DNA of 64,000 nucleotides from Kiritimatiellia bacterium. Lineage in GTDB: Bacteria > Verrucomicrobiota > Kiritimatiellia > RFP12 > JBMNHG01. Location of the stretch: contig JBMNHG010000002.1 in NCBI GenBank assembly GCA_050950285.1, positions 248,296 to 312,295 on the forward strand, in the 5' to 3' direction. Below the pieces are notes generated by a model. That model was not told where the DNA came from and made no database searches. It was given only the letters and a program-made list of their open reading frames with translations. Positions 39,324-60,161 of this stretch are shown piece by piece. The position numbers and the translations under genes were made by a program. Numbering within the stretch: the stretch's first letter is position 1; each line of letters starts with the position of its first letter.

Positions 39324-39620
39324 ATGGAAAAAGACACCTCAGGCGATGAAGAGAAGATTCGTGCCATCAAAGAGCAGATCGTGGCTCTCGGGCCCATGCG
39401 CCCCGGACGGCTCAGCGTGCAATACCAAAAGCCCAAGGAGAAGGCCGGGCCGTTCTACCAGATCAGCTACACGATCCAGAAGCGAAGCCGCTCGGACTAT
39501 GTACGCGAAGCCGATCTGGAACGTGTGAAGGCAGAACTCGAAAACTACCAGACGTTCAAGCGCCTTTGCGAAGAACTGGTTCTGGCCTCGCTGGCACTGG
39601 CAAAGTCGCGACAACGCTAG
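39324..39620 (+). CDS. IS-borne accessory ORF (99 aa), unknown function
   Basis: Good SD 8 nt upstream. Charged, coiled-coil-like protein (MEKDTSGDEEKIRAIKEQIVALGP...). Inside the IS boundaries. Confidence 0.45.
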   Translation: MEKDTSGDEEKIRAIKEQIVALGPMRPGRLSVQYQKPKEKAGPFYQISYTIQKRSRSDYVREADLERVKAELENYQTFKRLCEELVLASLALAKSRQR

Positions 39621-39683
39621 CCCCTCAAAACCTGCCCCAGTCTTCCCGATGGACGAGGTGGGGAGCAAAACGGAGATGCGCCC

Positions 39684-39692
39684 GTGGTGAGG
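39684..39692. repeat. Target-site duplication (right), GTGGTGAGG
   Basis: Identical to the 9-mer at 37959-37967. Confidence 0.7.
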
Positions 39693-39800
39693 TTTTGTGC
39701 TTGACGCCTTTCCACCTCCTTCGCATCATGGCGGCATGGATGGGGGTCGGCTCGTCCCGCCGCCCCCCGGCATGCGGCAACGGTCTTTGCGGGAGTCTCC

Positions 39801-43458: not shown

Positions 43459-43475
43459 GGAAAGGTGCTTTACAG

Positions 43476-44417
43476 ATGAGAACGTTCTTGGCATGTTTTA
43501 CTTTCTTCGCGTTCCAGGCCTTGGTGCGCGCAGAACCTGGCACTGTCGCAGAGGTCCTGAATAACCTCCGGAAGGGAGATGCCCGGGGGTTGCGGACTGA
43601 TCAGTACACAAATGCGGCGAGTGCCGTTGCCTTTCTGGAGAACATCGGTGTTCTGGAAGACGAGAAGATCCGACTGAAGGTGGTGCGGTTCTCGGCAACG
43701 CTGATGCGTCGGGCGGCAAGAGCGGGCTCGCAGCAGGACGAACAGAACGTAGAAGCCTTCACTGGCCAGATGGTGAAGATCCTTAAGGCTGATCCATCTA
43801 GGCGTATCCGGGAAGAGGCCGCGAAGAGTCTTCTGGAAATGGTCTCCCCGCGTGTTCTCGATCGCTATCACGCCGTTCTACGTCTTGCGGCCGAGGAAAG
43901 GAAGGACATCGCTACGCTTCTTGTCTGCGCATCACTGCATTCCTGCGATGCAACGTGGTTGGCGGAATTGGTGCGTACAATGAAACCGGAGTCCCGGATG
44001 GAGAAGCGCCAAATCGACAGCATTCTGGCGCGGTGCGGGGATCAGGCTGCAACAGATCGTCTCATTGATGAAGCAGGTCATGCGCAGGGAATGAGCGATG
44101 TTGAGATTGGTGAGTTGGTCGCCGCTTTGGCCTTTGTGCCTTCCGAACGGGTTCAGATGTTTCTTGGACTAGGTCTTCGCTCTGACACTGTTGTTTCACT
44201 ACCCGGGGGAGGCGCGATTCCCTGGCGCAACTGCTGTGCCCGTTCTTTGGTCCGAATGCACAGGCACGACGAGAGTTTTCCTGTAAAGAGGGACGACTAC
44301 ATGTATAGTGACGATGAGCTTGACAGAATCGAACAGTGGAGTGTGGTTACTCTCGGCATTGCCCCCCGTAGTGGAACACGGAGGAGCTTGAAAGTGACAC
44401 CAGGTATTCATCAGTAG
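43476..44417 (+). CDS. Signal-peptide partner protein 1 (candidate immunity; HEAT/armadillo-like repeats)
   Basis: Starts 18 nt after the module 1 stop. Signal peptide (MRTFLACFTFFAFQALVRA), alpha-helical repeat composition, and AT-richer DNA than the core genome. Confidence 0.55.
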   Translation: MRTFLACFTFFAFQALVRAEPGTVAEVLNNLRKGDARGLRTDQYTNAASAVAFLENIGVLEDEKIRLKVVRFSATLMRRAARAGSQQDEQNVEAFTGQMVKILKADPSRRIREEAAKSLLEMVSPRVLDRYHAVLRLAAEERKDIATLLVCASLHSCDATWLAELVRTMKPESRMEKRQIDSILARCGDQAATDRLIDEAGHAQGMSDVEIGELVAALAFVPSERVQMFLGLGLRSDTVVSLPGGGAIPWRNCCARSLVRMHRHDESFPVKRDDYMYSDDELDRIEQWSVVTLGIAPRSGTRRSLKVTPGIHQ

Positions 44418-44531
44418 TGGCACAGGCATAGGTTCGCGGCAAGAGCGAAGCACCCGGAACCCTCTCTACTGGGTGTCCCCTCCGCTCTAGTTGTCTTTGG
44501 CTCATGCAATGATTTCATTGTCGTCTTTCAA

Positions 44532-46253
44532 ATGAACATCTGGCACAAAGAATCTGTAAAACCCGTGAATCCGCACATCACGCTCCACTGGGCGGGGGTG
44601 CGCGAACTGTGCCTTCTGCACGGGGACGGGACGTTGTTCCCGAACGGCGGGCAGATCGACTCGCGCGCCGTTCCCTCCTGGCCCCTCCGCTTCCGCGTCG
44701 GGCCGCTCGCGCCGACGACGGAGTTCGTGGTGCGCCTTTTCGGCGAAGCCGACAACGTGACGGGCGAGAAGGCGGTGGACATCGTCCACGGGCGCGTCGT
44801 CGACGTGGACCTCGACGTTGACGCCAACCACGACGGCAAAATTGATGACGCCGACGAGCCTTTGGAGGTGGACCCCGGCGGACTGGCCTGCGTCTGCACG
44901 AACAAACTGACCCCGATCATGCTCACGCTTCAGCCCGCCGGACTGACCGGCAGGCTGACCCTCTCGGCAACGATGGGAGGGGACCGAATCCGCATCTGGA
45001 AAGACGCCGGGCGCATGATCGAGGTGGTATTGACCAATGGCTGCGCCCAGGTGGCTCCCGGCACGCTCTACGTCGAGGGGGTCACCAACAGCGCCGCCCT
45101 CCGCGATGTGGAGCTGCGCCTCGAATACGACGAGAACCCGCCGAACCAAAACAACCCCCTTTTCAAGTGCGAGGACAGGGTGAAGCTGACGGCCGTGAAA
45201 ATAGATTTTGTCACTCCCGCCGGTGATCCGGTAAATGCCGCCGTGCAGTCGGGCGACGGGCAAAACGAATTCACCTACTCGACAGCCACTCCCGGCGTTC
45301 TGACGATGAACCTGAAGGCGCACGTCACACCGAGCGGTATCGCCAACCAGATCAAGGGCCTATGCCTGTTTACGGTTGATATGATCGCCGGTTCCACCTT
45401 GGCTTGGGGCTCGTCGAATCCTAACGGCAAGCCGACAGCGAACGGTGATGACCTGTTGGCGACGGTCACGTTCACCGGTTTGCCCGCGAACAATTCCGAC
45501 TTCGGGGCCAAGAAGGCCGCTATCCACTTCAACGCCAGCAAGCAGGATGAAGCGAACTACGAAGTATTCTTTCCCCGAGATGTGGCGAACAATCCTGGTG
45601 GTTCTGATCCAAATTGGTTCTACTACTGGGGTCAGGTTTATGTGAATGCGAACGTTCAATATGTGGCCGCTGCGGCGGCCGGACGCGTACCTGCCATGAC
45701 AGGCTGGACGTACAACTCTGTACCAAGCAAAACTCGCATTGAAATCGGTAGCGGACATCCCGCAAAATACAAATCCTATGGCATCGGAGAGGAAGCGTCG
45801 GGCATTGATCGCTACATAATGACGGGAATACATGAGGAGAAGCATGTGGCACAGATTGCTGCCGCAGATGCTCTTCTGCCTACCAGCGGTGCCGATTCCT
45901 TTCGCTTCGGTTGGTCATGGAATCAATCCACTCATAATCATTGGACAAAGGGGCCTGATGGGCAATGGGGTGTTGCCGGAGTTGATGATGACGGGAATGG
46001 TGTAGTTGATGACGCAGCTGTGGCACCACCCTTTGAACCTGGGAACGGTGACGACATCAGCCTCGACCGCGCAACATGGCCGTGGTGGCCAAATACGTGG
46101 ACACTGCCCGGCGGAGTTTACGCCACCATCCATCCCATTGAAGGCGAGGCCGTCAAGGCTGCGGATGACGCAATGAATGAAAACGACTATGCGCCCCAAG
46201 ATTGGGGCAAGCCCGGCAAGAACCACAAGACGGTAAACAAGTGGGATGATTGA
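44532..46253 (+). CDS. Polymorphic-toxin-like module 2: same trunk, unrelated C-terminal region with HEEKH
   Basis: Nucleotides 44773-44883 differ from 41640-41750 by 1 nt. The trunk diverges after ..FKCEDRVKLTAVKIDF. C-terminal ..GIHEEKHVAQ.. (45831-45845). Begins only 10 aa before the trunk homology (MNIWHKESVKPVNPHITLHW). Confidence 0.65.
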   Translation: MNIWHKESVKPVNPHITLHWAGVRELCLLHGDGTLFPNGGQIDSRAVPSWPLRFRVGPLAPTTEFVVRLFGEADNVTGEKAVDIVHGRVVDVDLDVDANHDGKIDDADEPLEVDPGGLACVCTNKLTPIMLTLQPAGLTGRLTLSATMGGDRIRIWKDAGRMIEVVLTNGCAQVAPGTLYVEGVTNSAALRDVELRLEYDENPPNQNNPLFKCEDRVKLTAVKIDFVTPAGDPVNAAVQSGDGQNEFTYSTATPGVLTMNLKAHVTPSGIANQIKGLCLFTVDMIAGSTLAWGSSNPNGKPTANGDDLLATVTFTGLPANNSDFGAKKAAIHFNASKQDEANYEVFFPRDVANNPGGSDPNWFYYWGQVYVNANVQYVAAAAAGRVPAMTGWTYNSVPSKTRIEIGSGHPAKYKSYGIGEEASGIDRYIMTGIHEEKHVAQIAAADALLPTSGADSFRFGWSWNQSTHNHWTKGPDGQWGVAGVDDDGNGVVDDAAVAPPFEPGNGDDISLDRATWPWWPNTWTLPGGVYATIHPIEGEAVKAADDAMNENDYAPQDWGKPGKNHKTVNKWDD

Positions 46254-46274
46254 TTCTTTTCGGAGGAGAACATT

Positions 46275-46952
46275 ATGAATAATCGATTAGTGACAATGTT
46301 GCAGGCGATTGTGTTGATGGTTATATTGCTAACCACAGGTCGAGTGTTTGCTGGAAATGCCGAAGTGGAAAACATAGACATGGTTGATACGAAACAGTTG
46401 CTTTCAGCGCAGACGATGGAGCGGAGTCAGGCGCTGGACAGGTTGACTGCAAAATATCGCGAGGTCTCGGCGTCGCTCTTAAAGACACTGGAGGAGGCCA
46501 AGACCGAGTTTAGAACGGATCGCCGTTATCATTCGCCTCTTCACTCCGCCATACTGGCAGTCGATGCATGGCAGGTGATTGATGCCGATGCGCTTCTCCT
46601 TTCGATGGTTGACTACGAGTTAGATCCAAGTTCCTTGCCATTGGGAATGGATGTACCAGGCGACTATTTTTATCCCGCAGCCAAGACGTTGGTCCGCTTG
46701 CGCGTGGACATGGCGAAAGTGGAACGAGCGCTTGGAGCCACAGAGGACCCGAAAGCGCTGAGGATATTGACATGGGTGTTACTTGAACGAGGAGAAGACG
46801 TCGAGAAGGCGAAGATGGCTTTAGCCGATGCAAGCGGCAAAAGTCATGGGGCCACGGAAAAGCGGAATATCAGCGAAGCGCTAGAGCTGCTCAACAACCC
46901 TTCGGAGTTGTTGCCGATGCCGTCGAGGGGTGACCATCCTTCATCGAAGTGA
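46275..46952 (+). CDS. Signal-peptide partner protein 2 (candidate immunity)
   Basis: Starts 22 nt after the module 2 stop. N-terminal MNNRLVTMLQAIVLMVILLTTGRVFAG. Low GC, no similarity to partner 1. Confidence 0.55.
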   Translation: MNNRLVTMLQAIVLMVILLTTGRVFAGNAEVENIDMVDTKQLLSAQTMERSQALDRLTAKYREVSASLLKTLEEAKTEFRTDRRYHSPLHSAILAVDAWQVIDADALLLSMVDYELDPSSLPLGMDVPGDYFYPAAKTLVRLRVDMAKVERALGATEDPKALRILTWVLLERGEDVEKAKMALADASGKSHGATEKRNISEALELLNNPSELLPMPSRGDHPSSK

Positions 46953-47186
46953 CTGCTTTACGGCCTACGCACCTGACACGCCGCGTGCTGGAAGAAAGGC
47001 CACGCGGCGCGCCAGGTGCTCCGGCCTTGCTCCGGCGCTATCGCGCTTCCGGGGCACCTCCGCGCTGACGCGCTCCGGTGGTGGACTCGCTCACACGTTG
47101 CCCTTTCCGGCGCACCCCCGTGTTGCCTCCAGGCCGACACCTTGCATACATTGACAAATGGAATGACGGATTGATACGCTGTCCGC

Positions 47187-48941
47187 ATGGAATCAAGCCT
47201 CTGCATGAATGGCGCGAATGAACGGACGGCTTGGGAATATGCCGTGTGTAGCGGCCAAGACAACCACGACGACGAGCCGCCGGAGGAGGATCCCGGCGGC
47301 TACGCCTGCGTCTGCACGAACAAATTGACGCCGCTCAATCTGAAGGTGCAACCAACCGACCTGCCCGGCAAGGTCAGACTCTCGGCGACGGGCGGCCAGC
47401 GCATCAGAGTCTGGGAGAACGCCGGCCGCACCGGCGAGGTGGTATTGACCAATGGCTGCGCCCAAGTGGCGCCCGGCACGCTCTACGTCGAGGGGGTCAC
47501 CAACAGCGCCGCCCTCCGCGACGTGGAGCTGCGCCTCGAATACGACGAGAACCCGCCGGGCCAGAGCAACCCCCTCTTCAAGTGCGAGGACAGGGTGCGG
47601 CTGGTCGTCATAAAAGTGGACTTAGACATTTGGAACGGGGGAGCCGATTTGGACAACGGTGAGGCTGCCGGCCCCCAGGGGGCACAGGTCCCGGACGCCG
47701 ACGAGGAATCCGTCGGAGCATACATCCTCGTCAACTGGGATGATGACGACGGTGACGGCAAAATCAATGGCACCGGAAGTGGCTGGATATCCTTTCCAGT
47801 GCCAGATCTCGACGAATCAACGGCCATTACCGACGAGGATAATCTAGCGCAGTTGAAACTCAATCTTACGCCGTTACTTGATCTTGGAACGGTTGAACTG
47901 GAAGTGAGTGGTACCGATGCGGGCAAGATCAAGCTCTGGACCGAGTCAACCAAAGGAACGGTGGTCACACTCACATCCAACAAGAAGACATGGAACCTAT
48001 CAAACCCGACGCAGAAGAGCGAGTTTCAGAACTTAATGGCCAACAGCCTGTGGATCGAGGGAGTTGACGCGGGATCGGGTGAACGGGCTGCAACCTTTAC
48101 ATTGTGTTTCAAGGACAGTGGTGGAACTGAAATCTGCAATGACGTTAACAAGGCAACGTTGGTGATGCTGAATCTTGCGAACGTCGCTGGTAGAGAGGTT
48201 GACAATGATGCTCTTGCGGAGAGAGGGCATACGGCAGTAGTCGGTCGCTATGATGGCAGCTGCACCAAGGCCGATTTGCTCAATGCCGCGCACTATACAC
48301 TCTATGAGGCAGATGGGGGTGGAGATTGGGCCGGCACAGAACCAGGACCACGTGAAGCCCTTCTTACTCATGTTACGGCCAGACCAGGCCGCGAGTTTTT
48401 TGGTTCATTGTCACCCTTCTTGACGTCGTACTACAACAGCTCGTCAATGCCTAACACAGCGCAGGGTTACAGAACTCGTTTGAAGATATTGCTGGTGGCC
48501 AGGCGCTTGATTGATAACACCGCCAGCATAGGATATACAAAGTTCAACGCTGTCCTACCCGGAAACTGGAACGGCAATTTGGGCACGATTACAGATCTCC
48601 GATGCGACGGGTTCGTCGAAGTCTGCTATGAGTGGTCGGGCGTCAATTCGTGGGGAAGGATCGCAGGAGGTGGAGCCCGGTACAGCATCCTCGTTGCAGG
48701 GAATCAAGATGACCATAATGAATGGGTATGGGGAGACGTCCCGCAAGATGGAGCGAGTGACTTCTGGGCATGGCTGATGCCGATAACACAGATCGGATAT
48801 GCCGACACCTATATTGACAGCCATTATCCCCCATACACCAACGGTGACTTCGACTATACGGCGAACAATTTTGAAGGGACTTTCTGGGAGAGTGCCTTTT
48901 CCTCTCAACAACTCGTCATGCCAACGCTTTCAAATCCGTGA
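47187..48941 (+). CDS. Polymorphic-toxin-like module 3: 5'-truncated trunk + third unrelated C-terminal region
   Basis: Trunk homology starts abruptly at ..DNHDDEPPEEDPGGYACVCTNKLTP (the ~80 aa found in modules 1/2 are missing). ..VVLTNGCAQVAPGTLYVEGVTNSAALRDVELRLEYDENPP is identical to copy 2 at the protein level. The C-terminal half is unique with no HExxH. Confidence 0.6.
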   Translation: MESSLCMNGANERTAWEYAVCSGQDNHDDEPPEEDPGGYACVCTNKLTPLNLKVQPTDLPGKVRLSATGGQRIRVWENAGRTGEVVLTNGCAQVAPGTLYVEGVTNSAALRDVELRLEYDENPPGQSNPLFKCEDRVRLVVIKVDLDIWNGGADLDNGEAAGPQGAQVPDADEESVGAYILVNWDDDDGDGKINGTGSGWISFPVPDLDESTAITDEDNLAQLKLNLTPLLDLGTVELEVSGTDAGKIKLWTESTKGTVVTLTSNKKTWNLSNPTQKSEFQNLMANSLWIEGVDAGSGERAATFTLCFKDSGGTEICNDVNKATLVMLNLANVAGREVDNDALAERGHTAVVGRYDGSCTKADLLNAAHYTLYEADGGGDWAGTEPGPREALLTHVTARPGREFFGSLSPFLTSYYNSSSMPNTAQGYRTRLKILLVARRLIDNTASIGYTKFNAVLPGNWNGNLGTITDLRCDGFVEVCYEWSGVNSWGRIAGGGARYSILVAGNQDDHNEWVWGDVPQDGASDFWAWLMPITQIGYADTYIDSHYPPYTNGDFDYTANNFEGTFWESAFSSQQLVMPTLSNP

Positions 48942-48958
48942 AAGGTAGGAAACAAATC

Positions 48959-49735
48959 ATGAGGAAGACTCTCTTACTCTTGTGCGCCTCGCTCGCATTT
49001 TCCTTGGTGGGGCTTGCAAATGATGATGCTTTGTTGAAAGCTCTTGCAGCCGGAGATCGCACGGCCAGGAAGAATGCGGCAATGCAGATCGAGCAACGGT
49101 CAGTGAAAGACCTGCTCGCTCTTGCGGAAGAAAGCATTAAGAGCGAGAGCCTTGAACCTTCGGCAGCCATCTATGTCTTCCACCAGATACTGTGTGTTGC
49201 CTCTGAAAAGGGATTCACTGTTCATGATGCCGCTGCGTTGATCAGAATGCCTGGTGCTTCCGAGTTCAGGCAGGCACTTATAGACTGGATTAGAGAATTT
49301 GGAACCAAGAGAATTAATTCCGACGACGCTGCTGGAATGCTTCCTGAGATAGATGCGTATTTCCAGTCCAAGCAGGAGACTTTGCGATTCAGAACAACTG
49401 CACACAAACTGTCACGCGATCTGGCATGGAAGATCCGCGTCGACTTGAACGAGAAGGAGAACATGCAACCTGATCAGCGTGAGAAGATGAAGCAACTTCT
49501 CTGTGGGCATATCGATCACGTCTGCCAAGTTGTTGCCGACAGCACCGAAGCTGATGAAGCTGTTGAGGTATTTGCAGGTTGCGTCCCGTACTATCGCCTC
49601 TATGCTCGCGAGGGACTCTATCAAGATGGCGACCTTCAAGATGCGCTTCAACAAGCTGCCAATCAGAGGAACCGTAGCCCAAAGACGAAGAAGGCTATTC
49701 AGGCAATGATCGCCGAGCTGTGGAAGGCAGAATAG
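48959..49735 (+). CDS. Signal-peptide partner protein 3 (candidate immunity)
   Basis: MRKTLLLLCASLAFSLVGLA signal peptide; lies in a 3'-terminal overlap/abutment with module 3; low GC. Confidence 0.55.
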   Translation: MRKTLLLLCASLAFSLVGLANDDALLKALAAGDRTARKNAAMQIEQRSVKDLLALAEESIKSESLEPSAAIYVFHQILCVASEKGFTVHDAAALIRMPGASEFRQALIDWIREFGTKRINSDDAAGMLPEIDAYFQSKQETLRFRTTAHKLSRDLAWKIRVDLNEKENMQPDQREKMKQLLCGHIDHVCQVVADSTEADEAVEVFAGCVPYYRLYAREGLYQDGDLQDALQQAANQRNRSPKTKKAIQAMIAELWKAE

Positions 49736-49920
49736 GGCCGGACATATTCAAAACTATCAACCAAGGTTATCGTTTCAACCCCGGTTTTGGCCGTTTTCGA
49801 GCGTTTTGCTTCAAAAACGGTCGAAAACGTCGTTTTTCACACGCTCCGTTTTCGAAAAGCGCTTGGTGACAAACCTACCCCGTTTACAAGTTTTCGAGCC
49901 CTTCCTTATAACGCGCGGCG

Positions 49921-50997
49921 ATGTATCTCAAATGTCACTCGCGTCACAAAGACGGCAAAACCCACCACTACTGGAACGTCATGGAGCGTGTCGGCGGCGC
50001 CGACGGGCGTCGCTTCGAGCGCCAGGTGCTCTGTTTGGGAGAGTTGGGCGTCGAGGAGAAGCGCGACTGGGAGGCTCGCATCGAGAGGGTTTCAGGCGGC
50101 GGGCGAAGACCCGGGCGACTGCTTTTCGAGCTGCCCGAGGAGCCGCCCGACGAGCGCCTCGCCGAAGACCGCGCGCCATCCAGGCCCGAAGCCGTCCGAA
50201 TCCGCCTTTCAGGGTTCTCGCTGAAGAACCCGCGCCAGTACGGCGGCTGCTGGCTGTTCTGCACGCTCTGGGGGAAGCTCGGGCTCGACGCGTTCTGGCT
50301 TCCGCTCCTGCCGGCCTCGCGCAAGGGCACCCCGCGGGTTGACGTGCTCAAGATCCTCTGCGCCAACCGGCTCCTCGACCCATCGAGCGAATGGCGCGTC
50401 CACCGGGAGTGGTTCAAGCGCTCGGCCATGGGGGACTTGCTCGGCTGCGGGGAGGAGCTCTCGGCCAAGGACACGCTCTACCGCTACCTGGATCTTCTCC
50501 TCGAGCACAAGGACTCGTTCTTCCAGCACCTGCGCGGGCGCTGGACGGACATGTTCAACGCCTCGTGCGACGTGCTCCTCTGCGACCTAACGAGCACGTA
50601 CTTCGAGAGCGACCCGCCCTTCCCGCCGGGGGACAAGCGCATGCACGGCTACAGCCGGGACCATCGCGGCGACTGCGTGCAGATCGTCATCGCGCTGGTG
50701 ATCACGCCCGACGGGCTCCCCGTGGCCTACGAGGTCATTCACCACAGCCGGGAATCGCGCATCGAAAGCCACGTCTTCGTCGCCTTCATCGCCTACAGCC
50801 TCTCGGCGATCCAGATGATCGACGTGCACTTCCCCATCGGCGACGCCCGGGATTTGGTCTTCTCCCGCTACACCACGCCGGAGGCGGACCAGAAGCTGAT
50901 CCTGGACGCTCTCGGATGGGAGCTTCCCCCGCAGAACCCGCCGAAAATCACGACCGGAGGGAAAGTCGAAACTGGCCGTCTGGCGACAGACTTTTAA
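49921..50997 (+). pseudogene. IS1634/IS4-superfamily transposase, C-terminally truncated remnant
   Basis: Hallmark N-terminus MYLKCHSRHKDGKTHHYWNVMER and the first DDE block LLCDLTSTYFE. At 358 aa it lacks the distal catalytic region of ~550-aa IS1634 transposases. Confidence 0.55.
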
Positions 50998-51059: not shown

Positions 51060-52562
51060 CTAGAAGTACAAATCGCGTTCGCCGGCGACGATGCGGTTGT
51101 AGCGATCGAGCACCTGCGGATAGATCTTCGGGTACATCTCCCGGATCGCGGCGAGTTCGGATTGGATGACGGGCTCGCATATGCCGAGGCTCTCGGGCGA
51201 GGCGAAGTCGTCGAGCCACTCGCGGAAGGTGAGCACCGCGTTGATCTTGCAGAAGGTGCCTTCCTTGCCGGTCTTCAGGGCGTCCATGATGCAGCCGCCC
51301 GTGCGGCCGCACCGATACCCCGCCGTGCAGAACGACGTGATGATGCCCTTCTTCGCGAGGTCCACGATCATCTGCTCCAGCGACCGGGTGTCGCCCAGAA
51401 GGAACTGCTGCTCGTCGATCTCCTGCCCCGTGCGACCCTCGGAGTAGCCGCCGATGTCGATGCGCGTCCCGGCGTCCATCTGGGTGATGCCGATGGCAAG
51501 GCAGCGGTCGCGAAGCTCCTTGGTCTCGCGCGCGGTGACGATGAGGCCCGTGTACGGCACGGAAAGGCGGAGCACGAGGACGGCCCGGAAGAAGTCGTCG
51601 TCGGTGAAGGAGCTTTTGGCGTTGGCCACGTCCGAACCGGAGGCGGCGTGCATGCGGGGGACCGAGAAGGTGTGCGGGCCGACGTTCGCGAAACGCTCCA
51701 GTTCGCGGGCGTGGGCGCACATGGCGGCGACTTCGAACTTCCAGTCCGGATTAAGCCCGAAGAGCACGCCGAGGCCGACGTCGTCGATGCCGGCGTCGAA
51801 GGCGCGGTGCATGCAGGTGGCGCGCCAGCCGTAGTCGCCCTTCACGGTGTCCGCCGGGTGCATCTCGGCGTAGAGCTTGTGGGAGTAGGTTTCCTGGAAA
51901 ACCTGGAAGGTGCCGATGCCCGCATCGTGGACGATCTTGAGGTCGTCGATCGAAAGCGGGGCGGCATTGACGTTGATGCGGCGGACGTTGCCGACGCCGC
52001 GCCGCGTTTGGACCCGGGCGGAGTAGATGGCGGCGAGCGAATCGGCGATGAAGCGGGCGCCGGTGCACGGGTGTTCCCCGTAGACCGCCATCACGCGCTT
52101 GTGGCCCAGCGCAATCATGGCCTCGGCTTCCCGCCGCGTCTCCTCCAGGGTGAGACAGCGGCGCTTCTCCCTCGGGTTGTCGGCACGGAAGCCGCAGTAC
52201 TTGCAACGGTTCACGCAGTAGTTGCTGATGTACATCGGGGCGAAGGTCACGATGCGATTGTCGTAGACCTTGTGCTTGATCCTGCCGGCGGCATCGGCCA
52301 TTTCGGCGAGCAGCCCGGGATCGTCCACGGCGAGCAGCGTCGCGGTCTCGTCGCCGGAGAGGGTTTCGATGGCCAGGGACTTCGCCAGGATGTCGCGGAC
52401 GCGCGCGGGATCGGGCTGGGCGGCGGCGAGCTGGGCGGAGATTGCGCTGTCGTCGATGAAGTCGCGACCGTCCCGGTAGTAGCGGGTGATTTCGTCGCGC
52501 CGGATTGTCTTGTCGAGGAACTCGCGGACGGCGGTGGAGCTCCCGGTGGAATCGGTGTTCAT
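51060..52562 (-). CDS. Radical SAM enzyme, ThiH/HydG-like (2-iminoacetate synthase family)
   Basis: CVNRCKYCGF CxxxCxxC motif, a BioB/ThiH-like barrel, and an extra C-terminal Cys cluster (SFCTAGYRCGRTGGC...C) as in HydG. ~500 aa. Confidence 0.65.
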   Translation of the reverse strand: MNTDSTGSSTAVREFLDKTIRRDEITRYYRDGRDFIDDSAISAQLAAAQPDPARVRDILAKSLAIETLSGDETATLLAVDDPGLLAEMADAAGRIKHKVYDNRIVTFAPMYISNYCVNRCKYCGFRADNPREKRRCLTLEETRREAEAMIALGHKRVMAVYGEHPCTGARFIADSLAAIYSARVQTRRGVGNVRRINVNAAPLSIDDLKIVHDAGIGTFQVFQETYSHKLYAEMHPADTVKGDYGWRATCMHRAFDAGIDDVGLGVLFGLNPDWKFEVAAMCAHARELERFANVGPHTFSVPRMHAASGSDVANAKSSFTDDDFFRAVLVLRLSVPYTGLIVTARETKELRDRCLAIGITQMDAGTRIDIGGYSEGRTGQEIDEQQFLLGDTRSLEQMIVDLAKKGIITSFCTAGYRCGRTGGCIMDALKTGKEGTFCKINAVLTFREWLDDFASPESLGICEPVIQSELAAIREMYPKIYPQVLDRYNRIVAGERDLYF

Positions 52563-52778
52563 GGAATCCCTTTCATGCGGGAAAACCGCAGAAAAAATAT
52601 CGAACAAAAAGATTACGCGCACGCCACCCGCAAAGCAAATCAAATCAAAAGAGGCTCTTGCAAAACCGCGACCCGGCCGGACGACACAGAGGTCGTCCCT
52701 CCATCCGGCCCGCCGGGGACGGCGGTCCCCAGGCAGGGCGTCCCTCCCGATCCGAGGAGCGGCGTGTCCGGACGGCCC

Positions 52779-55700
52779 TTACCGGATCGTGATCTGGAAG
52801 AAGCGGCAGTCGCCGGGATGGGTATCGACGGCCTCGATCGGGAAGGCGGTGTCCGTGAGCTCGAGTTCGCCGGGCACGCCGCCGGGTTCCGTGTAGCGGA
52901 GCAGCTTGACGACGCCTCGCGCGGTCGTGGGCTTGCCCACGCCATCGACTTCGATCGCGCCACCGATTGTGACGGCGCCCGTCGCCGGGTCGATCGCGAT
53001 GCGGGTGATCCGCAGTTCGATTTCACCGTTCTCGGGCGCAAGGCCCGTGAGATAGCACCGGCCGAGCTGCGTCGCGTCGCCGGTGAAGGCCGAGAGCGCG
53101 GCCTGCCCGTCGGCGTCGGCGCCGAGCGCTGCGAACCACTGGCGGAGGATGTCGTTCGTGGACGCCGCGGCGACCACGGCCTTGGCGGCCGCGTTCGCCG
53201 GCGGGAGGTACAGCGGATGCCACTGCGACGGCTCTGTCACCAGTGCGCCGAACTCGTCGGCCACGAACGAGGCGCCGGTTCCGTCGCACGCGCCATCCCA
53301 CCAGTCGGCATCGACATACAGCGCCTGGCACACTGCGCCGGCGGGATCGGTCACGGAAAGCGCGAGCTTGCCGTTCGTGAGTTTCTCCAGCGGCCAGTAC
53401 CCGGACTTGGCGAGCGTGAGCGCCTTGCCCTTCTTGATGGCGACGGAGTTCGTGATCGTGAGGTGGAGCGACGGGGCGTTCGTGGTCACGACGCCGTTCT
53501 TCTCGCTGACCTTGGCGGCGGTGATCGTGATGTCGGCGAGGTCGATTGCCGCGGCGGCATCGAGGTTCGTGACGACGAGGTATTCCGAGCCGTCGCCTTT
53601 GCCGTCCGCAGTACTGCTCATCACTTCCGCAATGCGGAGCGAGTTGGGCAGCGCCGTGAAGGAGGGCCGCCACTGCGCGCGCTCGAGGATGTTCGTGGCG
53701 GGTTCTTTCGCGATGAAGGACGCGCCCGTGCCATCGCATGCGCCGCCCCACCACGAGGTATCGATGTAGAGCGTCTGGATGGTGGCGCCGGAAGCGGCGT
53801 AGAGCCGTGCGTCGACCTTTCCGTTCGTGATTTTTTGCGTCGGGCCGCTCCAGTATTCCGCCTTCATGCAGGGGATCGATTCGCCAGCCCCGAGGATTTC
53901 GCCGGAAGCGAAGGTGAAGTCGCACTTCGGGGATTCGCCGTGCTTCGCGCAGGTCACGCGCACGCCTTCGAGGTTGACGCCCGCCACGGGGGAGGTGTTG
54001 GTGATGACGATGTATTCGGAACCGTCGCCGCCGCCGTCGGCGGTGCAGCTCATGATCTCGACGATGCGGAGCGCGTCCTCGGGTTCGGCGTACGGGATGG
54101 AGGGTTCCTGCGAGACGACGGCTTCGGTGAGGGCGCTCCATTCGCCCGTCGACGCGTCGTAGGCGCGGGCGAGCACGCGCGTGGGCCTGTCGGAGATGGC
54201 GACGATCGCGTTCACGGAGTCGGCCGCCGTTCCCAGGCTGCAGTCCCAGTAGAGGTCGGACGAGCCGCTGTTGCACTGGTGGACTTCGACCGCGAGGACG
54301 TTCGTGCCGTCACGCAGCAGGTTGACCGGGATCTCGATCGAGTGCTCGTAGTAGGTGTTCTGCTCCGGCGCGCCGACCGTCGTGTTGGCGAACGTGTCGT
54401 ATCCGACATCGCCCGGGTTCATGTGGTGCCGTTCGATCTCGACGCCGTTCAGGTAGAGCACGTAGCCGTCGTCGGCGAGGATGTCGCCGACGAGGCGCGT
54501 GACGGTCGCGGCGTTGGATCCGCCGGGGATGCCGATGGTCTTGCGGAAGTAGGTCGTGATGACCTGCGTGCCGGAATCGCCGTGGTTGATGTAGCGGTGG
54601 GTCGCAGTGCCGACGGCATTGCCGTTGCCACCGACGACGCCGAGGATGCCGTTGCCGTGATCCCAGGACGAATCGTCGAACGCGACGGAATTCCAGGCGT
54701 TGCCGGAGGCGTCGTCGGCGGGCTTGTTGCCCCAGTCGTAGAAGCGCCAATCGGCGTTCTTCGCCACGAGCGCGATCGGCTCGGCGGCATCGCGTGTCAC
54801 GAGCGTGGCGGTGGCGGAAGGCGCATTGCCGTCGCGCGGGTCGGAGCCGTCGGTCGTGTAGTAGAACGGCGTGCCGCACGTGAGCACGAACGGGGTTTCG
54901 GAATCGAGTTGTCCGGAGTAGGCCGAGGCGGAAGGCGCGTCGATGGACGGGAACCAGCCGTGGTTGCGGTAGTGCTGCACGAGATATGGCGTACGGCGGG
55001 AGATGAAGTTCAAGGACGTGGCGCACCCCCGGTTCAGCCACGTGTTGCGGCCCCAGTCGTTGTGGCCCCAGCGCGCGAGTTCGCAGACGACCATGCTGTC
55101 GATCTCGGCCATGCGCTTGCGGAAGCGCCCGGTGGCCTTGGCGGGAGTGAGCGCGCCATCGCCGAAGAGGTGCTTCTGGATCCGGTCGGCGAAAACGGCG
55201 CGGTACTCTGCGTTGTCGAGCAGCTTGTAGTGGAGCTCGGCGGGGTTGAAGGCGCGGAGTTCCCCGAAGGTCTCGGGACGGTAGCCGGTCGTGCCGCGGA
55301 GCAGGCTGTCGGTCTCGGGGCCGCCGCCGAAACCGAGCGAGTGCTCGGCATCGTGGCGGAGCCAGATGAAGCCGGTCGAAGCCCCGGTGCGGTTACGCAG
55401 GCCGTACATGTTGTTCGCCATGTTGTCGGCGGCCGGGGAGTCGTTGTCGACCGCGTAATGGACGTTGATCATGAAGTCCATGAGGTTGGTGGCGTCCACG
55501 AGGACCGGATACGCGGGATTGCGCGTGCCGTCGGGATTCTTGCCGAGTACGCGGTAGTAGTTGTTGGAATAGCTTCCCCCGTAGCCTTCGTTCTCGGTGA
55601 TGTCGCGCAACAGCGTGAAGGCCTCCATGTCGCCGTCGGAGGCGGTCGTCTGGTAGCCCGGCTGCGAGGTCTTGATGAGATCCCAATCGTCGTCGTCGCC

Positions 55701-58700
55701 GCCGAGGTAGGTTTCGGCGTAGTCGGCATCGCCGCGTTCCTCGGTCATGTAGACGCCCCAGTAGACGCCGTTGATGAAGAGGTTGTAGTAGCGCGTGCGC
55801 TTGTAGGGCTGGCCCATGTCGCGCTGGGTGTCGCGCGAGAAGAGCTCATGGATGAGGGTGTCGCTATCGCTTCCCTGGTAGAAGGAGTAGTTCTGCGAGC
55901 AGCGGAGATCGACCTTCTCGAAGCGGTCCGCGCCTTCGTCGCCGAAGAGCGGGAAGTCCAGTGCACCGGAGCCGTATTCGCTGCGGAAGAAGAGGCGGAG
56001 CGAGTGCTTCGCGTAGCCGGGCGAACGGCTGTACGCGCCGCGGATCCGGACGCCCGCGGGCGTGCTGAACTCGTTCGCGGCGCCGTTCACGGGGTCGATC
56101 TGCTCGACGTGGATCGCGCGCTCCCATGCGCGGCCGTCATTGTTCGCGTTCACGTAGATGCCGGTCTGGGCATTGAAGAAGTTGCCGGGATCGGTCACGA
56201 TCGAAAGCGTGCAGACGAAGTTCGTGAAGCCGTCGAGGATGCGGACGGAGTTCGTGAAGCCGTCGAGCAGGAAGGAGCGATCCGGGCCATTGACGATGTC
56301 CGGGTCCATGCCATAGCGCATGGCCTGGCCGTTCACGGCCCCGTTGTCGGGGAAGCCGGGCGGCGTGGAGGTGTCCTGGGCGAGGATGTCGTCGAGGAAG
56401 AGATAGGTCGCGGTGGAGTCGACCTGGAGGATCGAGCGGGGATCCGGCACCGCCGCACGGACGACCGTCGTGGACGAAATCGCGATGGGTGCGGTGTAGC
56501 GGAATCCGTTCGCCGCCGACGGCGCCGTCCCGTCGAAGGTGTAGTAGATCGGGGCGGTGGGGTCGCTTTCGCAGGAGAGGGAAAGCTGGAAGGGCTGCGT
56601 CTTGTAGCCGTGCGGCTCGCTGAAGGTCACGGGGGGCGTCATCTCGGTGTTGCCGTCGTCGCCGTTCGCCTCGCCGGGGGTCGGCAGCCTGAAGTAGTAG
56701 AGGCGGTCCTCGGAAAGGATGCGGACGAGGCGCACGTCGAGGAGGAAGTCGGAGGAGGTGGTCGAGCGGCGAAGCCCGGTCACCACGAGTTCATTGCCGT
56801 TGGTGCGGAGGAGCGAGACCGGCACGTCGTACGCCTCGGGCGTGAGGGCAAGCGTGACGGGGCGATCGGTCGTTGCCGTGGCGTCCGCTTCGGGGATGCC
56901 GTCGGGCGCATTCGAGCGCGCGATTTCGGTGCCGTTGAGCGTGGCGACGAAGCCGTCGGCGTAGCGGATGCGGAGCTCGAGGCGGTCGTCGGGACCGGCC
57001 GTGCCATCGAAATCGAAGAAGGTGCGCCAATCGAGGCGGGATTCTCCGGCCATCGCATCCGACACATCGTTGGCGAGCGCGCTCGAAAGCGCGCCGGCGT
57101 GCACGATCGGGCCGGAGGGATCGCCGACCAGCTTGAAGGCGCTGGTCCAGTTCTCCTGGAATCCCTGGGCGACGGAGAAGTCGCAGGCGGAACCGCCGCC
57201 GCCCTCGAACATCACGAAGCGGACGTTGTATGCGCCCGCTTCGGGGAAGTTGAAGGTGAAGAGCGACTGCGTATAGCCGCGCCCCGTGGCGTATTCGCCG
57301 ACAAAATCGACGCCATGGCCGGAAATCCTGGCGCGGAACCCATCGTCGGTGCCAGCGGCGAAGGTCCACAGTCCGGGGGACGGGACATAGATCACGCCAT
57401 CGGCGGCGAGCACGAAGTTGTCCATCGTGTCGCCCGTGGAGGTTGTGCCCGGGAATGGATTCGCGGTGTAGTTCATGCCGCTTCCGTTGGCGAAGGCGAT
57501 GGTCTGGAAGTCCGCGTGGACGGGGTCGGCGGCCCACCTCGAACGATCGGCCACGCATGCCTCGGCGGTATCGATGTCGCCGAGGCCGACGTTCATGCGA
57601 TAGAGGGTGCAGGCGAAGGCGCCGGGCGTAGTCGAGAAGCCGACACCGCCGGTGATGGAGTGCCAGTCGCCGGCATCGGCCACGCGGTATTCCGCCGCGG
57701 CATCGGCATCGGCCAGCTGCTCGTAGTCGCGGGCATAGCCGTAGGAGAAGTCCTTGATCTGCGGACCGAAGGAGAACTGCGAGACGATGTCGCCCTCGGC
57801 GCGCGCGAGCGCGACGGCTTCGCCATCGGCGGAGAACCCGATGTCGACATGGACTTCGCCATTCGTCCAGCCCGTGTAGCCGTAGTCGTCGCCCCAGACG
57901 ATGAGATATCCCTCGGCCGGGATGACCGTGTCCGTGGGGAGTTCCTTCCACTTCGACCACTTCTTTGAGGGATCGTCCGTCATGCGCCAGCCGGAGAGAT
58001 CGACCGCCACCGGATTCGGGTTGTAGAGTTCGACCCAGTCGGAATCGTCGCCGTCGGCGGTGAGGAGCGTGGTGCCATTGCTCGCCATGATTTCGTTGAT
58101 CCTGACTTCAAGGCCGGTGGCTGGAGTCGTGAAGGTTCCGGAGACGGCGTCGGAAGCCGCGCCCATGTTGTTCGACGCGATCATCGAATAGGCGTATGTC
58201 GAATCGCCTTCGAGCCCGAGAATGCGGAATGTCGCGGTGTCGCCGGAGTCGAGGCCTGTCGCGACTTGCCCGTAATCGCCGAGCGAGGCGGCGTCGGGAC
58301 CGTATGCGAAATGGAAGGACGCGTTCGTCGCGGCGGTACCCGCGTAATCGCATGCCACGGTGAACACGGCGCGGTCGATGTCGCCGCCCGTGTGCTCGAC
58401 CGTGAAGCGCGGCCCGGAGAGGACCGGCACGCCGATCGCCTCGATTTCCGCATAGAAGGCGCCCAGCGATTCCTGGGCGCCGAAGTTGACGCGGATGCCG
58501 ACGATGCGGTGGCCGAGGGGTTCGCCATCGGAATCGGAGAGCACGGCGAGGTTCTGGCCGACACTGTCGGGCGCCTCATAGCTGATGGCGGAGCCAGGGA
58601 GGATCGACCACGTCCCGTCCTCGGCCTGGACCTCGATCGAGTCGATGTCGATCCGGTCCTTCGACGTGTCGTTCCACTGCGAATAGAAGCGGAGCGACAG

Positions 58701-59045
58701 CAGGTCATAGCCATTGTCCGAAGCGGCGAAAGCGCGCGTGAGGACGGTTTTCCCGCCCGCCGCCGACGAGGTGATGATGTAGCGGTACTTGTTGTTGGCC
58801 GGAACGTTTTCGTACACCAGGCCGTCGGTAAGAACCTTGGGCGACTTGGAGGATCCGCTGGTGACCACGGCGGAGTCCCTGGCCTGGGTCACGAATGGCG
58901 GCAGGCCGCGAAGCAGGTTGTTCGCGGAAGGAGCGAACTCGGTCCAGGACCATGTGTTGGTCGTCCAGACGGGGGCCCCATGAAGCATGGCCGCGGCTGC
59001 GAAAACAACTGCGGAAAGGAAAACGCGTTTTGTGTCTGCTCTCAT
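52779..59045 (-). CDS. Giant (2088 aa) secreted CotH-kinase-like protein with lamin-tail (LTD) and multiple beta-sandwich domains
   Basis: Signal peptide (MRADTKRVFLSAVVFAAAAMLHG). LTD motif RINEIMASNG...DWVELYNPNPVAVDLSGWRMTDD. CotH core ..GIYVNANNDGRAWERAIHVEQID...HSLRLFF....LIHELFSRD.....YYNLFINGVYWGVY.TEE. Duplicated C-terminal modules (..RIVEIMSCTADGGGDGSEYIVITN.. and ..RIAEVMSSTADGKGDGSEYLVVTN..). Confidence 0.75.
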   Translation of the reverse strand: MRADTKRVFLSAVVFAAAAMLHGAPVWTTNTWSWTEFAPSANNLLRGLPPFVTQARDSAVVTSGSSKSPKVLTDGLVYENVPANNKYRYIITSSAAGGKTVLTRAFAASDNGYDLLSLRFYSQWNDTSKDRIDIDSIEVQAEDGTWSILPGSAISYEAPDSVGQNLAVLSDSDGEPLGHRIVGIRVNFGAQESLGAFYAEIEAIGVPVLSGPRFTVEHTGGDIDRAVFTVACDYAGTAATNASFHFAYGPDAASLGDYGQVATGLDSGDTATFRILGLEGDSTYAYSMIASNNMGAASDAVSGTFTTPATGLEVRINEIMASNGTTLLTADGDDSDWVELYNPNPVAVDLSGWRMTDDPSKKWSKWKELPTDTVIPAEGYLIVWGDDYGYTGWTNGEVHVDIGFSADGEAVALARAEGDIVSQFSFGPQIKDFSYGYARDYEQLADADAAAEYRVADAGDWHSITGGVGFSTTPGAFACTLYRMNVGLGDIDTAEACVADRSRWAADPVHADFQTIAFANGSGMNYTANPFPGTTSTGDTMDNFVLAADGVIYVPSPGLWTFAAGTDDGFRARISGHGVDFVGEYATGRGYTQSLFTFNFPEAGAYNVRFVMFEGGGGSACDFSVAQGFQENWTSAFKLVGDPSGPIVHAGALSSALANDVSDAMAGESRLDWRTFFDFDGTAGPDDRLELRIRYADGFVATLNGTEIARSNAPDGIPEADATATTDRPVTLALTPEAYDVPVSLLRTNGNELVVTGLRRSTTSSDFLLDVRLVRILSEDRLYYFRLPTPGEANGDDGNTEMTPPVTFSEPHGYKTQPFQLSLSCESDPTAPIYYTFDGTAPSAANGFRYTAPIAISSTTVVRAAVPDPRSILQVDSTATYLFLDDILAQDTSTPPGFPDNGAVNGQAMRYGMDPDIVNGPDRSFLLDGFTNSVRILDGFTNFVCTLSIVTDPGNFFNAQTGIYVNANNDGRAWERAIHVEQIDPVNGAANEFSTPAGVRIRGAYSRSPGYAKHSLRLFFRSEYGSGALDFPLFGDEGADRFEKVDLRCSQNYSFYQGSDSDTLIHELFSRDTQRDMGQPYKRTRYYNLFINGVYWGVYMTEERGDADYAETYLGGDDDDWDLIKTSQPGYQTTASDGDMEAFTLLRDITENEGYGGSYSNNYYRVLGKNPDGTRNPAYPVLVDATNLMDFMINVHYAVDNDSPAADNMANNMYGLRNRTGASTGFIWLRHDAEHSLGFGGGPETDSLLRGTTGYRPETFGELRAFNPAELHYKLLDNAEYRAVFADRIQKHLFGDGALTPAKATGRFRKRMAEIDSMVVCELARWGHNDWGRNTWLNRGCATSLNFISRRTPYLVQHYRNHGWFPSIDAPSASAYSGQLDSETPFVLTCGTPFYYTTDGSDPRDGNAPSATATLVTRDAAEPIALVAKNADWRFYDWGNKPADDASGNAWNSVAFDDSSWDHGNGILGVVGGNGNAVGTATHRYINHGDSGTQVITTYFRKTIGIPGGSNAATVTRLVGDILADDGYVLYLNGVEIERHHMNPGDVGYDTFANTTVGAPEQNTYYEHSIEIPVNLLRDGTNVLAVEVHQCNSGSSDLYWDCSLGTAADSVNAIVAISDRPTRVLARAYDASTGEWSALTEAVVSQEPSIPYAEPEDALRIVEIMSCTADGGGDGSEYIVITNTSPVAGVNLEGVRVTCAKHGESPKCDFTFASGEILGAGESIPCMKAEYWSGPTQKITNGKVDARLYAASGATIQTLYIDTSWWGGACDGTGASFIAKEPATNILERAQWRPSFTALPNSLRIAEVMSSTADGKGDGSEYLVVTNLDAAAAIDLADITITAAKVSEKNGVVTTNAPSLHLTITNSVAIKKGKALTLAKSGYWPLEKLTNGKLALSVTDPAGAVCQALYVDADWWDGACDGTGASFVADEFGALVTEPSQWHPLYLPPANAAAKAVVAAASTNDILRQWFAALGADADGQAALSAFTGDATQLGRCYLTGLAPENGEIELRITRIAIDPATGAVTIGGAIEVDGVGKPTTARGVVKLLRYTEPGGVPGELELTDTAFPIEAVDTHPGDCRFFQITIR

Positions 59046-59198
59046 GGTGGTATCGTACCCCATTCCCGCAATGCACCGCAATCCGATAATTGGCCTGTAC
59101 GGTTCACGGGATGGAACCCTGCTTGCAAGGCGGGAAATCCAGGGCCATCACACGACATTGGTTTGACACCCGGAAGAGCATGGGGTACCTTTCCGCCC

Positions 59199-60161
59199 AT
59201 GAGAATTCTGTCTGGCATCCAGCCCTCGGGGAAGCTTCACCTGGGCAATTATTTCGGCATGATGAAGCCGTCCATCGACCTCCAGATGCGCGGCGACGCC
59301 TACATTTTCATCGCGAACTACCACGCCCTCACCACCGTCTCGGACCCGCAGAAGCTTCGCGAGGACACGTGGGACGTCGCCCTCGACTTCCTCGCCTGCG
59401 GCCTGGATCCCGACCGCACCTGCTTCTTCCGGCAAAGCGATGTGCCGGAGGTGACCGAACTCACCTGGCTGCTTTCGATCGTCACGCCCATGGGACTGCT
59501 CGAGCGGTGCCACTCGTACAAGGACAAGCTGGCCAGAGGCATGGCCGCGAGCCACGGCCTCTTCTCCTATCCCGTGCTGATGGCGGCGGACATCCTCGCG
59601 TACCAGTCGGACATCGTCCCCGTGGGGCGCGACCAGAAGCAGCACGTCGAAGTCACCCGCGACATCGCGATCAAGTTCAACAACCAGTTCGGCAAAACCT
59701 TCCGGATTCCCGAACCCTCGATCGAAGACGTGGTGGCGGTGGTCCCCGGGCTCGATGGGCAGAAGATGTCCAAGAGCTACGGCAACACCATCGACCTGTT
59801 CTCCCCCATCGAGGAGGCCAAGGCGCGCATCATGCGGATTGTCACCGACAGCACGCCGCTGGAGGACCCGAAAGACCCCGACACCTGCAACGTCTTCGCC
59901 CTCTACAAGCTGTTCGCAACGCCGGACGAGCAGGCCGACATGGCCGCCCGGCTCCGCGCCGGAGGCATGGGATACGGAACCGCGAAGAAAGAGCTGGCCG
60001 CGAAATTCGAGGAAACCTTCGCCCCCCTGGTCGCACGGCGCGCCGAACTCGCCGCGCGTCCGGACGACGTGGAGGACGTGCTCCGCGCCGGCGCCGCCAA
60101 GGCGCGCGCCGAAGCCCGCAAGACGCTCGACGCCGCCCGGAAGGCCGTCGGCATCGCCTGA
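59199..60161 (+). CDS. trpS: Tryptophan--tRNA ligase
   Basis: SGIQPSGKLHLGNY (HIGH-type) and KMSKS motifs; 320 aa, intact. Confidence 0.9.
   Translation: MRILSGIQPSGKLHLGNYFGMMKPSIDLQMRGDAYIFIANYHALTTVSDPQKLREDTWDVALDFLACGLDPDRTCFFRQSDVPEVTELTWLLSIVTPMGLLERCHSYKDKLARGMAASHGLFSYPVLMAADILAYQSDIVPVGRDQKQHVEVTRDIAIKFNNQFGKTFRIPEPSIEDVVAVVPGLDGQKMSKSYGNTIDLFSPIEEAKARIMRIVTDSTPLEDPKDPDTCNVFALYKLFATPDEQADMAARLRAGGMGYGTAKKELAAKFEETFAPLVARRAELAARPDDVEDVLRAGAAKARAEARKTLDAARKAVGIA

Follow-up and report, generated by a model that had tools for sequence, protein, structure and literature searches.

What would a protein built around a spore-coat kinase domain do in a member of Kiritimatiellia, a class that is not known for spore formation? 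The question is raised by a single gene in a stretch of 64,000 nucleotides of a Kiritimatiellia bacterium (assembly GCA_050950285.1, contig JBMNHG010000002.1, positions 248,296 to 312,295 of the forward strand), to which we refer as the window. The gene lies on the minus strand and encodes a protein of 2088 amino acids (aa) in which a signal-peptide-like N-terminus, three lamin tail domains (LTDs) and several beta-sandwich modules accompany a core of the CotH family. It is a further member of an already catalogued family, the LTD-Fn3_assoc-CotH giants, and its architecture, fold and catalytic motif are those that the family predicts. We propose, with moderate confidence, that the product is a secreted and catalytically competent CotH-type phosphotransferase, whose beta-sandwich modules would fix it to a polymeric target.

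An intact gene with a conserved CotH core

The features that concern the gene model and its core are the following (ORF, open reading frame; GC1 and GC3, guanine-plus-cytosine content at first and third codon positions; TRF, Tandem Repeats Finder).

52779..59045, minus strand: whole coding sequence, 2088 aa plus stop codon, the ORF starting with ATG
58974..59045, minus strand: signal-peptide-like N-terminus, aa 1-24, from the top Kyte-Doolittle window and likeness to homologs
56205..56264, minus strand: in-frame tandem duplication of 30 base pairs (bp), DGFTNSVRIL / DGFTNFVCTL, aa 928-947 (TRF period 30, 1.9 copies, 92% match)
54891..56228, minus strand: CotH atypical kinase-like core, aa 940-1385, from PF08757, a family profile and a predicted model
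56007..56009, minus strand: K1013, candidate N-lobe nucleotide-binding lysine, kept in 71 of 78 members
55344..55442, minus strand: catalytic segment with D1202, N1212, D1232 and E1234, from a profile alignment to 5jd9
51162..57968, plus strand: antisense ORF of 2268 aa, overlapping the CotH gene and a radical-SAM gene (GC1 0.88, GC3 0.61)

The reading frame runs for 2088 codons without an internal stop, as the first-pass annotation of this DNA had reported, and upstream it stays open as far as a TTG at 59081. Translation from the ATG at 59045 gives the N-terminus MRADTKRVFLSAVVFAAAAMLHGA, in which MRADTKR is followed by a hydrophobic core of 14 residues; this segment is the single strongly hydrophobic 19-mer of the whole protein on the Kyte-Doolittle scale (score 1.93), in agreement with the signal peptide that had been proposed. 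An identical protein is already present in NCBI under the name lamin tail domain-containing protein (P0001, 2069 aa); it starts 19 aa later, at Met20, and the signal peptide is thereby lost (58989-59045). Because the closest homologs begin with signal peptides of a comparable kind, the ATG at 59045 is the better start. The composition of the protein is strongly acidic, with 264 Asp and Glu against 147 Lys and Arg, and a promoter and terminator scan gave a result no better than that for shuffled sequence. Among the real genes it is the largest intact one in the window, as had been stated, the next ORFs having about 700-880 aa.

Long spurious ORFs are frequent in a high-GC metagenome-assembled genome (MAG) such as this source, and one giant gene might in principle be mimicked by chimeric assembly, by fusion of ORFs or by a pseudogene in decay; the spurious antisense ORF that overlaps the locus and the internal 30-bp tandem duplication speak in the same direction. 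We considered the antisense ORF as a gene and rejected it: its GC1 and the GC3 of the real gene are both 0.88, the mirror pattern that marks a shadow ORF of a high-GC coding strand. The duplication keeps the frame and adds ten residues at the N-terminal border of the core, just ahead of its first strand; homologs have a single copy, and a separate assembly shows the duplication too. In fact, that assembly (Logan contig L001, from the single run SRR31066179) covers the whole gene with 100% identity across 6977 bp; GC3 stays at 0.81-0.92 in 200-codon blocks throughout the gene, the flanking genes being alike; and full-length homologs of 1730-2084 aa exist with a collinear domain order and 41-55% identity. 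An artefact of assembly or a pseudogene is thus essentially excluded.

In the core, PF08757 matches aa 999-1330 over profile positions 1-299 of 322, scoring 59.3 bits (cut-off 23.8). A search of the PDB with the whole protein as a single sequence gave nothing and a family profile was needed; built from the 24 family members of alignment A1, it matched the Bacillus cereus CotH structures 5jd9 and 5jda (expect value, E, 2.3e-9). The AlphaFold2 model of aa 940-1400 (predicted local distance difference score 86, predicted template-modelling score 0.88) has the same two structures as its best Foldseek matches, with E 1.7e-12, probability 1.00 and a target-normalised template-modelling (TM) score of 0.74, so that the CotH core appears complete, as the first reading of the sequence had taken it to be. 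Weaker Foldseek matches are CtkA, Fam20C, PI3K and HipT, all of them kinase-fold proteins. Those of CtkA from Helicobacter pylori (3akj, E 1.4e-3) and Fam20C (4kqa, E 1.2e-2), which are likewise secreted, amount to a distant fold likeness (TM 0.2-0.35), with other accessory domains and no sequence similarity.

The profile alignment places the Asp, Asn and Asp of the family on D224, N229 and D247 of B. cereus CotH, which correspond to D1202, N1212 and D1232 of the query. D1202 is equivalent also to D228 of B. subtilis CotH and D1232 to D251, and the two aspartates are 23 residues apart in both Bacillus proteins; the B. subtilis mutants D228Q and D251A are catalytically inactive (PMC7821199, from which, together with the 5jd9 alignment, our numbering is taken). 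Among 78 aligned domains, D1202 is conserved in 74, N1212 in 75 and D1232 in 77, and E1103 in 76. Such retention is the pattern that one expects of an enzyme, as judged from sequence, and not of a degenerate pseudokinase. The first-pass annotation had proposed a check of the catalytic residues and had named their loss, together with a frameshift or a chimeric assembly, as what would speak against it; since all three residues are retained and the gene is intact, that objection falls.

Accessory modules and the C-terminal tail

The core is preceded by the signal peptide, an orphan beta-module, an Ig-like module, an LTD, a PA14-like module, a jelly roll and a module of the Fn3_assoc/CHB_HEX_C type; it is followed by a second Fn3_assoc-like module, which is split by a second jelly roll, by two divergent LTDs and by a tail of 143 aa. 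The modules outside the core are listed here from the N-terminus.

58431..58967, minus strand: N-terminal module, aa 27-205, ending in FYAEIEAIG, a putative beta-sandwich
58110..58430, minus strand: Ig/FN3-like linker module, aa 206-312, with a very weak Pfam hint of the Ig-like Kre9_KNH (E 0.095)
57768..58109, minus strand: LTD-1, aa 313-426 (Pfam PF00932, best stretch aa 310-426)
57126..57728, minus strand: PA14-like module, aa ~440-640 (PF07691 at aa 536-620, E 0.0026, under the gathering score)
56691..57083, minus strand: jelly-roll module A, aa ~655-785 (RIRYADGFVATLNGTEIAR), from homology to module B
56439..56612, minus strand: Fn3_assoc / CHB_HEX_C_1 module, aa 812-869 (PF13290 E 1.1e-13, PF13287 E 4e-13)
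54081..54878, minus strand: second Fn3_assoc-like module, split by jelly-roll B, aa ~1390-1655 (FYYTTDGSDPR ... RVLARAYDASTGEWSALTEAVV)
53646..54077, minus strand: LTD-2, aa 1657-1800 (PF00932 at aa ~1662-1760, E 2.6e-8, 34.7 bits against a cut-off of 34.3)
53211..53645, minus strand: LTD-3, aa 1801-1945 (PF00932 at aa ~1805-1890, 20.6 bits, below the cut-off)
52782..53210, minus strand: C-terminal tail domain, aa 1946-2088 (143 aa), ending in CRFFQITIR, modelled as four helices followed by a six-strand FN3-like beta-sandwich

The LTD, CotH and beta-sandwich modules of the first-pass annotation are therefore supported by Pfam, and the motifs that it had quoted are all present: RINEIMASNG at aa 315, DWVELYN at aa 336, VDLSGW at aa 348, CTADGGGDGSEY at aa 1667 and STADGKGDGSEY at aa 1811. 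The three LTD stretches combined give PF00932 a total of 97.7 bits and E 6.4e-28 for the whole protein. LTD-2 and LTD-3 are tandem modules of about 145 aa, 41% identical to each other (BLASTP E 1e-37), and relatives have from one to three LTD-type modules at the C-terminal side where the query has two. The duplication that had been placed in the last ~250 aa is real as this LTD pair, at aa 1657-1945, but it is not the end of the protein, because the non-repeated tail of 143 aa follows it.

The N-terminal module is probably a beta-sandwich. Neither Pfam nor a phmmer search of the PDB gave any match for aa 26-309, and the search of word-indexed proteins also found nothing there, which is a weak negative since the identical P0001 was missed as well; among the sequences fetched, a relative of the module occurs in P0010 alone, in its C-terminal part (phmmer 3.7e-6). 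For aa 206-312 we tentatively suggest, from the sequence hint listed above, an Ig/FN3-like linker.

The assignment of the PA14-like module is consistent with the relatives, as P0133 matches PA14 at the equivalent position with E 1.9e-8 and the precomputed Pfam annotation of P0003 and P0005 includes PF07691. Jelly-roll modules A and B (the latter at aa ~1420-1620) are 34% identical over 88 aa (E ~2e-6). Module A has no Pfam match in this protein; its counterpart in P0133 scores as PF14683, similar to carbohydrate-binding modules (E 6.8e-5). The second Fn3_assoc-like module and jelly-roll B have no Pfam match of their own, and jelly-roll B has no match in the PDB, while the two halves of the split module are contiguous in P0005, P0007 and P0008. 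A scan of the protein against NCBIfam gave no meaningful match.

The closest homologs retain the C-terminal tail. Among 1.84 billion representative proteins searched, only 34 relatives of it were found, every match lying at the extreme C-terminus, and 14 of the 15 carriers examined are LTD and/or CotH family proteins, the remaining one being a Peptidase_C10 protein. The LTD/CotH proteins that bear it are of two architectures, one with PA14 and Fn3_assoc and the other with Laminin_G_3. The tail has no Pfam match, its profile finds no relative in the PDB, and the word-indexed search returned just nine short fragments. This distribution might suggest that the tail, with its ending RFF-x-L/I-x-I/V-E/R, serves surface proteins of Kiritimatiellia as a lineage-restricted module for attachment or sorting that has not been described before; if so, the protein would be tethered to the envelope and, as an extracellular phosphotransferase, would act on glycoconjugates of the host or its diet in the gut. 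We judge this very unlikely. Neither a C-terminal domain of the type IX secretion system nor a C-terminal transmembrane anchor was recognised at this end, and the predicted tail is a helical bundle with a generic FN3-like sandwich. The protein contains no LPXTG or PEP string, no Pfam sorting domain and no hydrophobic segment beyond the signal peptide, and the surface anchoring that had been suggested for it thus finds no support. Most likely the protein is Sec-exported, soluble and multi-domain, with the CotH core as its sole enzyme-like module.

Possible roles: phosphotransferase, scaffold or sugar kinase

Around this core stand three LTDs, the PA14-like module, two jelly rolls, two modules of the Fn3_assoc/CHB_HEX_C type and the orphan N-terminal module, most of which are, by analogy, of types that bind glycans or other polymers elsewhere. 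In the mechanism that we favour, after export past the inner membrane these binding modules would keep the protein on a polymeric target, which may be the envelope or matrix of the cell itself or an external glycoprotein or polysaccharide, and the CotH core would move phosphate from a nucleotide onto hydroxyl groups of that target, in parallel with the phosphorylation of CotB and CotG by CotH in the Bacillus spore coat.

The Bacillus enzyme and the query share PF08757, the kinase-like fold (for the query in a predicted model) and the equivalents of Asp228, Asp251 and the loop Asn, at a sequence identity of about 12%. Bacillus CotH is a single domain of about 360 aa whose substrates in the mother cell are CotB and CotG; in contrast, the query has a domain of about 450 aa with an insertion in the catalytic loop, a signal peptide and a context of 2088 aa with many domains. 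Among its neighbours in the window there are no CotB/CotG-like genes with Ser/Lys/Arg repeats and no sporulation context.

Several observations weigh against a secreted phosphotransferase. The phosphate donor poses the chief difficulty: no supply of adenosine triphosphate (ATP) is known in the periplasm or outside a diderm cell, and a classical kinase reaction outside the cytoplasm is therefore problematic. In addition, the candidate lysine K1013 is not alignable to the solved CotH structure, the PDB alignment beginning at chain residue 77, and the clade of the query inserts 5-9 residues between the catalytic Asp and Asn, so that the Asn stands at D+10 versus D+5. For the LTD, PA14-like and jelly-roll modules, a role in binding is assumed by analogy with their families. 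Finally, no conserved partner or substrate gene is found beside the homologs P0002 and P0008, whose neighbourhoods are unrelated, the contig retrieved for P0001 (L001, 6977 bp) being too short for any further comparison, and the genomic context consequently offers no clue to the substrate and no operon partner.

The problem of extracellular ATP favours a role without catalysis, in which the CotH domain would be a protein- or glycan-binding surface and the whole protein a non-enzymatic surface adhesin or matrix component. About 75% of the protein consists of non-catalytic beta-sandwich modules, and there are precedents among eukaryotes: the Mucorales invasins CotH2, CotH3 and CotH7, likewise secreted or surface CotH-domain proteins, are ligands of the host receptors GRP78 and integrin (PMC9973265). 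Those invasins, however, are short single-domain fungal proteins, and the "CotH motif" QTNDGAY, which binds GRP78, is absent from the query. The near-invariance of the catalytic Asp, Asn and Asp over 78 members is also hard to explain without catalysis, and scans with Pfam, hydrophobicity and motifs found no anchor by which such an adhesin would stay on the cell. We therefore consider a purely binding function rather unlikely.

Cellulosomes, too, are known to contain extracellular CotH modules. In Clostridium thermocellum, CseP (Cthe_0044) is a CotH protein and Cthe_0239 is composed of LTD, LTD, Fn3 and CotH (PMC6083626); for cellulosomal CotH a review of 2025 states that its role is "not clear yet" and offers a structural role as one option (PMC12484212), which would suit a scaffold. 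Like the query, the CotH proteins of C. thermocellum and of anaerobic fungi are extracellular and associate CotH with LTD and Fn3-type modules, and the puzzle of the phosphate donor is equally theirs. They differ in being carried on the cellulosome by dockerins, whereas neither dockerin PF00404 nor any other known attachment module was found in the query with Pfam at E up to 0.1; dockerin PF00404 is present in some distant relatives (P0046, P0068 and P0103). Among the papers searched, CotH is mentioned together with a lamin tail domain in two, both of them on cellulosomes, and the remark of the first-pass annotation that CotH-LTD giants are poorly characterised is a fair one.

The phosphate acceptor might also be a sugar hydroxyl, with glycan-type modules delivering the substrate to the CotH core. 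Sugar kinases are known in the secretory pathway, namely the xylose kinase Fam20B and the O-mannose kinase POMK, and Fam20C is among the structural neighbours of the core. The PA14-like module, the jelly roll resembling carbohydrate-binding modules and the CHB_HEX_C_1/Fn3_assoc module are of types usual on carbohydrate-active enzymes; one homolog adjoins glycoside-hydrolase genes (Melibiase, CelD_N); and Kiritimatiellae are described as polysaccharide specialists (PMC6388578, PMC7356697). On the other hand, the characterised CotH enzymes are all Ser/Thr protein kinases, gene neighbourhoods are not conserved, and no specific glycan-binding family reaches the Pfam cut-off in the query. A carbohydrate-directed phosphotransferase is, in our estimate, unlikely, and we retain the reading of a secreted phosphotransferase of the CotH type that its modules would keep on a polymeric target.

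Relatives and surroundings

The search gave more than 200 relatives with E < 1e-5; of the 120 listed, the majority have PF00932, PF13287/PF13290 and PF08757 together. Their named sources are mostly Kiritimatiellae, Verrucomicrobiota and Phycisphaerae, and a contig scan of genomes added related loci in a Kiritimatiellae MAG from goat abomasum and in another Kiritimatiellia MAG. The closest relatives, P0002-P0008, are collinear with the query and 41-55% identical to it over 52-85% of its length. The LTD-Fn3_assoc-CotH giants of Kiritimatiellae, Verrucomicrobiota and Planctomycetota have the domain order, the divergent LTDs in tandem and the C-terminal tail in common with the query; the query differs from them by its N-terminal module, present elsewhere just in P0010, and by its private tandem duplication of 10 aa. 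The features private to this protein, that is the orphan N-terminal module, the 30-bp duplication and the rare tail domain, are minor.

The immediate neighbours of the giant gene are of housekeeping type.

51060-52643, minus strand: radical-SAM + BATS gene, HydG/ThiH-like by eye, about 200 nucleotides downstream on the same strand
59199..60161, plus strand: trpS, tryptophanyl-tRNA synthetase, upstream and divergent

Beyond trpS, on the upstream side, there are an ABC permease and a DUF6080 gene.

Elsewhere in the window, the stretch 41300-49800 has a GC content of 0.51-0.58, compared with 0.65-0.70 in the rest, and contains six plus-strand ORFs (41356-43458, 43437-44417, 44532-46253, 46275-46952, 47187-48941 and 48938-49735). 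No Pfam or PADLOC match was found among the ORFs checked and there is no tRNA nearby; the stretch looks like a foreign island. It is bordered by an ORF of 358 aa (49921-50997, plus strand; start MYLKCHSRHKDGKTHHYWNV), which has no Pfam match and resembles, by eye, an apparently truncated N-terminal part of an IS1634/IS4-type transposase. The region 39600-41800 is very GC-rich (0.74), with several overlapping ORFs on both strands, and the ORF of 630 aa at 39801-41693 has no PADLOC match. The second largest plausible gene of the window is an ORF of 879 aa at 35059-37698 on the minus strand (GC3 0.67), without Pfam or PADLOC match.

Extracellular CotH proteins of bacteria are numerous, with more than 200 relatives found here, and are met repeatedly both in cellulosomes and in lineages that degrade polysaccharides. 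The gene described here leaves the knowledge of the family unchanged, and the question of substrate and donor is no more testable with it than through homologs from cultured organisms. What it adds is a clean example from a gut-type member of Kiritimatiellia, full-length and with the catalytic motif intact, together with a domain map and a rare, well-modelled tail.

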